DNA from: a virus | Taxonomy: Duplodnaviria; Heunggongvirae; Uroviricota; Caudoviricetes | IMG/VR virus record: IMGVR_UViG_2526164647_000012 | DNA: 11,924 nucleotides | Direction: 5' to 3' (one strand) | In this document: positions 10,258-11,924 of the stretch, one piece after another | Position numbering within the stretch: the stretch's first letter is position 1 | How the letters are laid out: the number at the start of each line of letters is the position of its first letter | Program-made: the position numbers and the translations under genes | Notes under the pieces: model-generated | What the model was told of the DNA's origin: nothing | The model's database searches: none | What the model saw: only the letters and a program-made list of their open reading frames with translations

Positions 10258-10321
10258 TGAGGTAGCCTGAGTTTAACGGACACTCCTTCCTGAAATAGAA
10301 TGGCATCAGAAGGAGCTAATA

Positions 10322-10609
10322 ATGAGCAGAAAAACCCGACGTTACTCTAAAGAGTTCAAAGCCGAAGCTGTCAGAACGGTTCTTGAAAATCAACTTTCGA
10401 TCAGTGAAGACGCTTCCCGATTATTCCTTCCTGAAGGCACTTTAGGACAATGGGTTACCGCCGCCAGAAAAGGGCTCGGTACTCCTGGTTCCCGCACGCT
10501 GGCTGAACTGGAATCTGAAATTCTGCAACTGCGTAAGGCGTTAAATGAAGCTCGCCTTGAGCGAGATATATTAAAAAAGCAACAGCGTATTTTGCACAGG
10601 AGTCGCTGA
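10322..10609 (+). CDS. IS600 OrfA
   Basis: MSRKTRRYSKEFKAEAVRTVLENQLSISEDASRLFLPEGTLGQWVTAARKG...; IS3-family HTH protein. Confidence 0.85.
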   Translation: MSRKTRRYSKEFKAEAVRTVLENQLSISEDASRLFLPEGTLGQWVTAARKGLGTPGSRTLAELESEILQLRKALNEARLERDILKKQQRILHRSR

Positions 10610-10658
10610 AAAATACGCGTTAATCGAACAATGGCGACAACAATTTCCCATTGAAGCG

Positions 10659-11477
10659 ATGTGTCAGGTATTTGGTGTATCCAGGAGCGGTTATTACAAC
10701 TGGGTACAGCATGAACCCTCAGACAGAAAACAAAGTGATGAGCGGCTAAAACTGGAGATTAAGGTGGCACATATCCGCACTCGCGAAACATATGGAACCC
10801 GGCGGCTCCAGACGGAGCTGGCAGAGAATGGCATCATCGTTGGTCGTGACCGACTGGCATGTCTTCGTAAGGAGCTGAGGCTACGCTGTAAGCAGAAACG
10901 CAAGTTCAGAGCGACTACGAACCCGAACCACAATCTGCCAGTTGCGCCAAATCTGCTGAACCAGACGTTCGCTCCTACAGCACCAAATCAGGTCTGGGTG
11001 GCGGACCTGACGTATGTTGCCACACAGGAGGGATGGTTGTACCTCGCTGGCATCAAAGATGTTTATACGTGCGAAATTGTCGGCTACGCCATGGGAGAGC
11101 GCATGACAAAAGAGCTGACAGGTAAAGCCCTGTTTATGGCGCTCAGGAGCCAGCGCCCACCTGCCGGGCTAATCCACCACTCTGATCGAGGTTCACAGTA
11201 CTGCGCATACGATTACCGGGTCATACAGGAGCAGTCTGGTCTGAAAACATCAATGTCGCGTAAAGGTAACTGTTACGACAACGCTCCGATGGAAAGCTTC
11301 TGGGGAACGCTGAAAAATGAGAGCCTGAGCCACTATCGTTTTAATAACCGGGATGAAGCCATCTCAGTAATACGGGAATACATTGAGATTTTCTACAATC
11401 GTCAGCGTCGTCACTCTCGTCTGGGGAATATCTCCCCGGCAGCCTTCAGGGAAAAATATCATCAGATGGCTGCTTAA
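10659..11477 (+). CDS. IS600 OrfB (DDE transposase part; normally fused to OrfA by -1 frameshift)
   Basis: ...[25 protein letters not shown]...[11 protein letters not shown]...[15 protein letters not shown]... DDE motif region. Confidence 0.85.
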
Positions 11478-11520
11478 AAAAAGAACAAATGGTAGTGTCC
11501 GCTATTGCCAGTACACCTCA

Positions 11521-11924
11521 ATATACGCGCGACAGGGCGTGGAGCTGAGCCGTAATACCATGGTGCGCAGGGTATCAGAAATGGCAGACAAACTCCGTCC
11601 TCTGTATATAGCGCTGAATGACTATGTTCTGGAGGCAGGAAAGGTGCACGCAGATGACACTCCGGTGAAAGTACTGGCCCCGGGGAACGGAAAGACGAAA
11701 ACGGGTCGTCTGTGGGTATACGTCAGGGATGATCGTAATGCGGGTTCATCCCTGCCGGCAGCCGTCTGGTTCGCGTATTCGGCAGATCGCAAAGGAGAAC
11801 ATCCGCAGCTCCACCTGGCAAAGTATCAGGGCGTACTGCAGGCTGATGCCTATGCAGGTTATAACGTACTGTACGAAACGGGCCGGGTGAAGGAAGCCGG
11901 GTGCCTGGCCCACGCCCGCCGAAA
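11521..11924 (+). pseudogene. IS66-family transposase (TnpC-like) fragment, 5'-truncated by IS600, continues beyond window end
   Basis: Open frame [17 protein letters not shown]...[34 protein letters not shown]...[42 protein letters not shown], characteristic of the IS66 TnpC catalytic core; begins abruptly at the IS600 end. Confidence 0.7.

Follow-up and report, generated by a model that had tools for sequence, protein, structure and literature searches.

A complete IS600 element in the DNA analysed here, a stretch of 11,924 nucleotides which we call the window, connects two sequences that appear to belong to different insertions of this element. On its left lies an internal fragment of shiA, on its right the middle of the transposase gene of ISSfl3, and the triplets next to its ends do not repeat each other. 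We suggest that an old insertion into shiA has exchanged its right flank with a second IS600 copy located within ISSfl3. Going by sequence comparison, we lean towards an exchange that took place in a cell; its main competitor is a wrong exit of the assembler from the repeat. The window is organised as follows.

1 to about 5800: decayed lambdoid prophage (tRNA array, Q, rusA, hokD, integrase) at tRNA-Ser
After the prophage, in this order: mtfA, asnT (6921-6996), an island integrase stump and IS911
8519-9767, minus strand: IS911, with NCBIfam IS3 transposase matches at 8527-9366 and 9393-9731
9768-10257, plus strand: internal fragment of shiA (shikimate:H+ symporter), nucleotides 624-1113 of 1317, codons 209-371
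10255-10257, plus strand: ATG triplet; the original shiA::IS600 had this 3-bp target duplicated, and the window has only the left copy
10258-11520, plus strand: IS600 (IS3 family), complete but for one deleted base
10338-10860, plus strand: diagnostic alleles of the shiA copy within IS600, from alignment with IS600 copies
10573-10578, plus strand: A6 run in the frameshift site of IS600, A7 in the 33 other copies compared
10861-11520, plus strand: marker-free IS600 interval of 660 bp which must contain the flank exchange (crossover or assembler switch)
11521-11924, plus strand: ISSfl3 (IS66 family) tnpC fragment, from codon 225 onward to the window end
11569, plus strand: rare ISSfl3 allele A

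The prophage content of the first 5800 or so nucleotides makes a 14-kb "virus" record (G002) the nearest viral match. The nearest genome is G001, a 4.49-Mb single-contig Shigella-type chromosome; this and the 4.44-Mb genome CP178302, both complete, serve as the relatives in what follows. Parts of the prophage tRNA array (324-633, Gly-Thr-Lys-Met/Ile) are found at 5-10x depth in related read sets, and these segments are thus repeated in several prophages of these genomes. At about position 5786, at a site adjoining the 3′ end of the prophage integrase and the tRNA-Ser attachment region, the window lacks 10 bp (a ATTCCAAGTA-like repeat unit) compared with G001 and G002. The short allele occurs in many public runs and is therefore a lineage polymorphism rather than an error. 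Just upstream of the window equivalent, in the prophage lysis region, G001 carries an ISSfl3 copy (C1:1987928-1989334; L031 17926-19335) which is itself interrupted by IS600 at nucleotide ~1911 (window-equivalent 11662). The other side of that IS600 is sequence of the phage tail-terminator region (ATGAGCGTGATG...), and this duplication-less copy marks a loss of about 10 kb of prophage head genes compared with E. coli FDAARGOS_944.

The boundaries of the IS600 in the window were set by alignment to 30 full-length copies in G001. The element measures 1263 bp, has the ends TGAGG...CCTCA and is 99-100% identical to 30 or more of the G001 copies. This agrees with the size of about 1264 bp, the TG...CA ends and the close similarity to other copies by which IS600 is recognised. 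Matching E. coli sequences are annotated "IS3-like element IS600", and the transposase frames match the NCBIfam IS3 model (E = 3e-98). The missing base lies in the A AAA AAG site of the -1 frameshift, where the window has six A residues and all the other copies compared have seven. With A6, OrfA would be 95 aa long with a changed C-terminus and a -1 slip would yield 100 aa; a product of 384-385 aa is reached only by a +1 or -2 shift, so that OrfAB (385 aa) is not made by a -1 shift. In 2010-era runs of other Shigella and E. coli, A6 words are found too, as errors. The short run could be a real mutation that inactivates this copy, or else a homopolymer miscall. At position 3841, in single-copy prophage DNA, there is a second A7-to-A6 change private to the window, and the two changes together hint at homopolymer errors in the source assembly.

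Both flanks of the element can be assigned. An earlier note on this DNA had read the left flank as shiA ending in ...FTEM (ATG), the right flank as mid-gene tnpC of the IS66 family beginning with ATA, and the sequence between IS911 and IS600 as a 490-bp internal shiA fragment, all without a target-site duplication at IS600. These readings hold. Positions 9768-10257 are 97.6% identical (blastn) to nucleotides 624-1113 of the E. coli K-12 shiA gene and end with ...F T E M, in which ATG is codon 371. The fragment matches the shikimate-transporter equivalog model NF007414 (E = 2e-97) between positions 207 and 371 of its 438, with a score under the full-length cut-off as codons 209-371 alone remain. 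IS911, whose left end ...CACTTCA stops at 9767, has cut off the 5′ half of the gene, and the IS911/shiA junction is the same in G001, G002 and CP178302. Copies of ISSfl3, annotated "IS66-like element ISSfl3 family transposase", share 99.75-100% identity with the right flank, 11521-11924, which also matches the IS66 model NF033517 (E = 1e-41). This flank begins at the first base of tnpC codon 225, around nucleotide 1770 of the ~2.73-kb ISSfl3, with tnpC coordinates taken from an annotated EIEC pINV. Refinement of the boundaries gave no 3-bp duplication either; shifting them by one base (the T at 10258 can be assigned to shiA) does not change this.

The left parent of this junction is readily found. 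In G001 and in CP178302, IS600 is inserted at the identical nucleotide of shiA (...GAAATG-IS600-ATGTTTGGTGCC), with ATG on both sides, and beyond the element follow the shiA 3′ end, amn and yeeN, collinear with K-12. The shiA-amn synteny is thus kept in both genomes and not in the window. Judged from this comparison, the original event is an ordinary insertion of IS600 into shiA with duplication of ATG, and since the simple insertion persists in both relatives the right junction of the window would be secondary. The window element and the shiA copy of G001 moreover have in common 10338 G, 10410 A, 10425 T, 10499 C and 10860 T. Several of these alleles are rare among the other G001 copies: of 30, three carry 10860 T, and 10338 G, 10410 A and 10425 T are found in a single one each. 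On these alleles, the IS600 of the window is the same copy as the shiA::IS600 of the relatives.

The junction of IS600 with the shiA 3′ end and amn was also present at single-copy depth in each of the seven related read sets examined (X1, X12, X14, X71, X72, X74 and X77). Such retention is predicted by an unrearranged insertion and equally by an inversion or a cointegrate. The shiA::IS600 copies of G001 (C1:2001598-2002833; L032) and CP178302 (L048 3182-4418) share a 27-bp in-frame deletion in orfB (window-equivalent 11019-11045) and a T at window-equivalent 11486; the window has neither. As both are found in two independent assemblies they are real lineage markers. We considered them as markers of a crossover and rejected them, because they are inferred to be private to the G001/CP178302 lineage and neither date nor place such an event.

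The right parent is much rarer. The 21-mer across CCTCA/ATATACGCG was found by exact-pattern scans neither in G001 and G002 nor in GTDB representative genomes, metagenome contigs and viral contigs, and with megablast none of 5,426 complete E. coli genomes spans the IS600/ISSfl3 junction. One record in PLSDB spans it in one piece (100% over 160 bp). This is CP026791, a plasmid of 59.8 kb and of the pINV type from S. flexneri 61-4982, and the sole finished record with the junction has therefore a plasmid context and a left flank different from that of the window. There the left flank of IS600 is ISSfl3 sequence ending ...GCCGGTG, the usual site on pINV. In most S. flexneri pINVs this site, which lies 126 bp upstream of ATA, holds a simple IS600 insertion with GTG duplicated; this is not the junction of the window, and we set it aside. 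CP026791 lacks exactly these 126 bp of ISSfl3 to the right of IS600 (L044 10817-12080 compared with pSFxv_1, L046 2817-4080). Past the right end of ISSfl3 this plasmid has pINV genes, among them a toxin-antitoxin pair of the relE/parE type, ccdAB, ipaH9.8 and ospG. Probably a second insertion nearby was followed by recombination between the two IS600 copies in 61-4982, which created the junction seen in the window. Matches on EIEC pINV that contain IS600 and ISSfl3 have a different insertion site near the 3′ end of tnpC and were set aside.

The IS600/ISSfl3 junction occurs further in more than 20 public read sets, among them X1, X5, X11 and X14, where it was seen in Logan contigs. In X1 the junction contig (55 bp) has a depth of 310 against 60.6 for single-copy sequence, and in X14 (50 bp) a depth of 89.5 against 54.4. 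X5 and X11 show the junction at a depth of 2-3 only; these runs are labelled as other organisms, have assemblies of 4.7 Mb and 1.7 Mb and contain no shiA. The simplest explanation is that small amounts of S. flexneri reads were carried over within public-health sequencing batches. In the runs with the short allele at 5786 (X71, X72, X74 and X77) no IS600/ISSfl3 contig was seen. Position 11569 connects the window more closely to the plasmid. Among the ISSfl3 sequences examined, A at this position is common only to the window, CP026791 and the low-depth contig of X5; T is found in four copies of G001, in G002, in pSFxv_1, in the EIEC pINV and in the ISSfl3 unitigs of X1, X14, X18 and X49. This parent is seen as IS600/ATA only, with no matching ...ATA/IS600 left junction. 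The reciprocal junction of ISSfl3 with the left end of IS600 (...GAAATA/TGAGG) was found neither in X1 nor in X14, although Logan contigs cannot prove absence. Pieces of shiA are contained in no Shigella plasmid record of PLSDB.

We suggest that the junction arose in the following way. The starting state would be the old shiA::IS600 of the S. flexneri-type lineage, with ATG duplicated and the shiA 3′ end and amn beyond the element. Its right flank would then have been swapped for the flank of another IS600, one inserted into tnpC of ISSfl3, through homologous recombination within the final 660 bp of the 1.26-kb element. This would leave shiA next to IRL and, next to IRR, ISSfl3 beginning at the ATA site, and because these flanks stem from two insertions no duplication is expected. 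The best candidate for the partner would be a pINV-type copy as in CP026791, since that plasmid has the identical junction and the same rare A at 11569. The alleles within IS600 are consistent with this. At 10499, 10753 and 10860 the window and the CP026791 copy disagree, and from 10861 to 11520 the window equals the plasmid copy and the majority allele at every site. As the alleles of the shiA copy are kept through 10860, the exchange would have to lie in the last 660 bp.

An element with the left junction of one insertion and the right junction of a second bears, as far as sequences can tell, the mark that homologous exchange between IS600 copies leaves, and both parental junctions occur separately in relatives. 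Such elements are common. Fifteen of the 26 IS600 copies in G001 which are full length with exact ends have no duplication, ten have one of 3 bp and one has 4 bp. Duplication-less, flank-exchanged copies are the norm in this genome type, as the earlier note had supposed when it called dense junctions of this kind typical of Shigella-like genomes. Its proposal that the junction came from recombination between IS600 copies stands in so far as one element carries flanks of two insertions whose parents are seen separately, though the joining may have been done by an assembler rather than by the cell. Logan contigs are built with k=31 and are too short to span the 1.26-kb element, and the linkage of the shiA fragment to ISSfl3 is that given by the window contig. 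We nevertheless consider an exchange of flanks in the cell somewhat the better bet. Its outcome could be an inversion, a translocation or a cointegrate between plasmid and chromosome. For the last of these, a single crossover between the IS600 of a CP026791-like plasmid and the chromosomal shiA::IS600 would make the window one end of an integrated pINV-derived plasmid, with the order shiA′-IS600-ISSfl3 3′...plasmid...ISSfl3 5′-IS600-shiA 3′. All four junctions predicted by such an integration are observed somewhere in relatives; we hold this particular outcome for unlikely.

The strongest alternative is that the junction was made during assembly. The strain would then have an ordinary shiA′-IS600-shiA 3′ arrangement and separately an IS600/ISSfl3 junction, for instance on a pINV-type plasmid. 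The assembler would have tracked the shiA copy as long as copy-specific SNPs last and would then have left the collapsed repeat at the wrong exit, possibly the more abundant one. Several observations fit. The window looks like a whole contig between repeat branch points: it ends 3 bp before position 11927, where ISSfl3 copies in one genome differ (C or T) and next to which a unitig of X14 ends as well (11926), and it starts 19 bp inside the end of a unitig of X14, X74 and X77, where the depth is about 1.5-2x. The switch falls within the marker-free 660 bp, and reads shorter than this could not have linked 10860 to the right junction. The two window-private A6 runs suggest data prone to homopolymer errors, the junction with the shiA 3′ end is kept in all related read sets, and the depth of the IS600/ISSfl3 contigs in X1 and X14, above single copy in both, would make it a favoured exit. 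Against this, the same contig crosses IS911 and several multi-copy repeats of the tRNA array in full accord with three other assemblies, and real exchanges of IS600 flanks are very common. In addition, an assembler which halts at a branch caused by one SNP would probably not have chosen among more than 40 IS600 exits unless it had linking evidence. Taken together, we regard an artificial join as possible but on the doubtful side.

Two further ways to obtain the junction in a cell fare much worse than the exchange with a distant copy. A deletion, in which the IS600 of shiA recombined with, or transposed beside, a directly oriented IS600/ISSfl3 downstream, with loss of the shiA 3′ end and amn up to ISSfl3, is a common route to duplication-less junctions for IS3-family elements, and the neighbouring IS911 junction is such a scar, the shiA 5′ part and yeeL being absent from G001. 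However, G001 and CP178302 lack ISSfl3 over the 2.8-3.6 kb that follow shiA, the nearest directly oriented downstream ISSfl3 in G001 is about 1.3 Mb away, and the right junction occurs independently of shiA. The presence of the shiA 3′ end and amn beside the right end of IS600 in every related read set, in all seven at single-copy depth, likewise argues against a deletion, which we consider very improbable. For the same reason the "nested IS decay" of the earlier note may not be decay: the duplication-less junction is there, but in related read sets the sequence beyond it persists.

A local inversion of 12 kb is hardly to be expected either. It would need a second, inverted IS600 at the ATA site of another ISSfl3, the one which in G001 and G002 lies upstream of the window, about 2 kb from its start; recombination of the two inverted elements would then have flipped the segment between them. 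The orientation of that ISSfl3 copy in the prophage lysis region of both would suit the window structure after a flip, but IS600 occurs at its ATA site in no genome or read set (in G001 it sits at window-equivalent 11662), it has T at 11569 in G001 and G002 where the window has A, and the missing reciprocal junction in X1 and X14 adds weak evidence of its own.

Whether it arose in the cell or during assembly, a junction of this kind is an already known phenomenon, and exchange of IS600 flanks is part of the ordinary scrambling of Shigella genomes. For the window the mechanism is supported in kind, short of proof for this strain, and it does not speak for any additional loss of genes. The shiA gene had been inactivated earlier in this lineage, IS911 having removed its 5′ half. 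As a well-documented route by which both chromosomes and pINV of Shigella are rearranged, an IS-driven exchange has little importance alone. It carries a caution, namely that duplication-less IS junctions in draft Shigella contigs should not be read as rearrangements unless linking reads are at hand.

The case for an artificial join resembles the repeat mis-joins of draft assemblies in that a high-copy repeat is entered at one locus and left at another, with the switch at a place that has no copy-specific variant; it differs in that the rest of the window contig crosses other repeats correctly. For the partner junction a parallel comes from IS150 at rbs in the long-term evolution experiment with E. 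coli, where deletions by IS3-family elements reportedly arise in two steps, transposition nearby followed by recombination. The parallel would explain a possible origin of the IS600/ATA junction on pINV, given the GTG site 126 bp upstream and the absence of the 126 bp from CP026791. It concerns this partner junction and not the shiA junction of the window.

The proposed exchange itself is closest to what was seen on comparing S. flexneri Sf8401 with Sf301, where IS elements mediated inversions and translocations and one of six inversions was probably due to IS600 (Nie et al. 2006; PMC1550401). There, as proposed here, recombination of dispersed copies of the same IS swaps flanks and leaves copies that have no duplication (PMC1550401). 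The difference is that the window shows one of the two recombinant junctions, and this one as an assembled contig. Plasmid-borne copies of IS600 recombine as well: "Variant 3" of pINV is a deletion of the PAI between two IS600 copies of the plasmid (2017, PMC5629016). In the same work IS copies of plasmid and chromosome were found to recombine into cointegrates, and integrations via IS1294, which are reversible, were proven by PacBio sequencing (PMC5629016). The integrations there use IS1294 and not IS600, and a plasmid origin of the right flank in the window is suggested by the shared junction and one SNP only. If a cointegrate at shiA were nevertheless true, it would be a natural one mediated by IS600. 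It would mean that integration of pINV, reversible and described for IS1294 (PMC5629016), can also use another IS and a fixed site on the chromosome, and would bear on how carriage and expression of the virulence plasmid are modulated.
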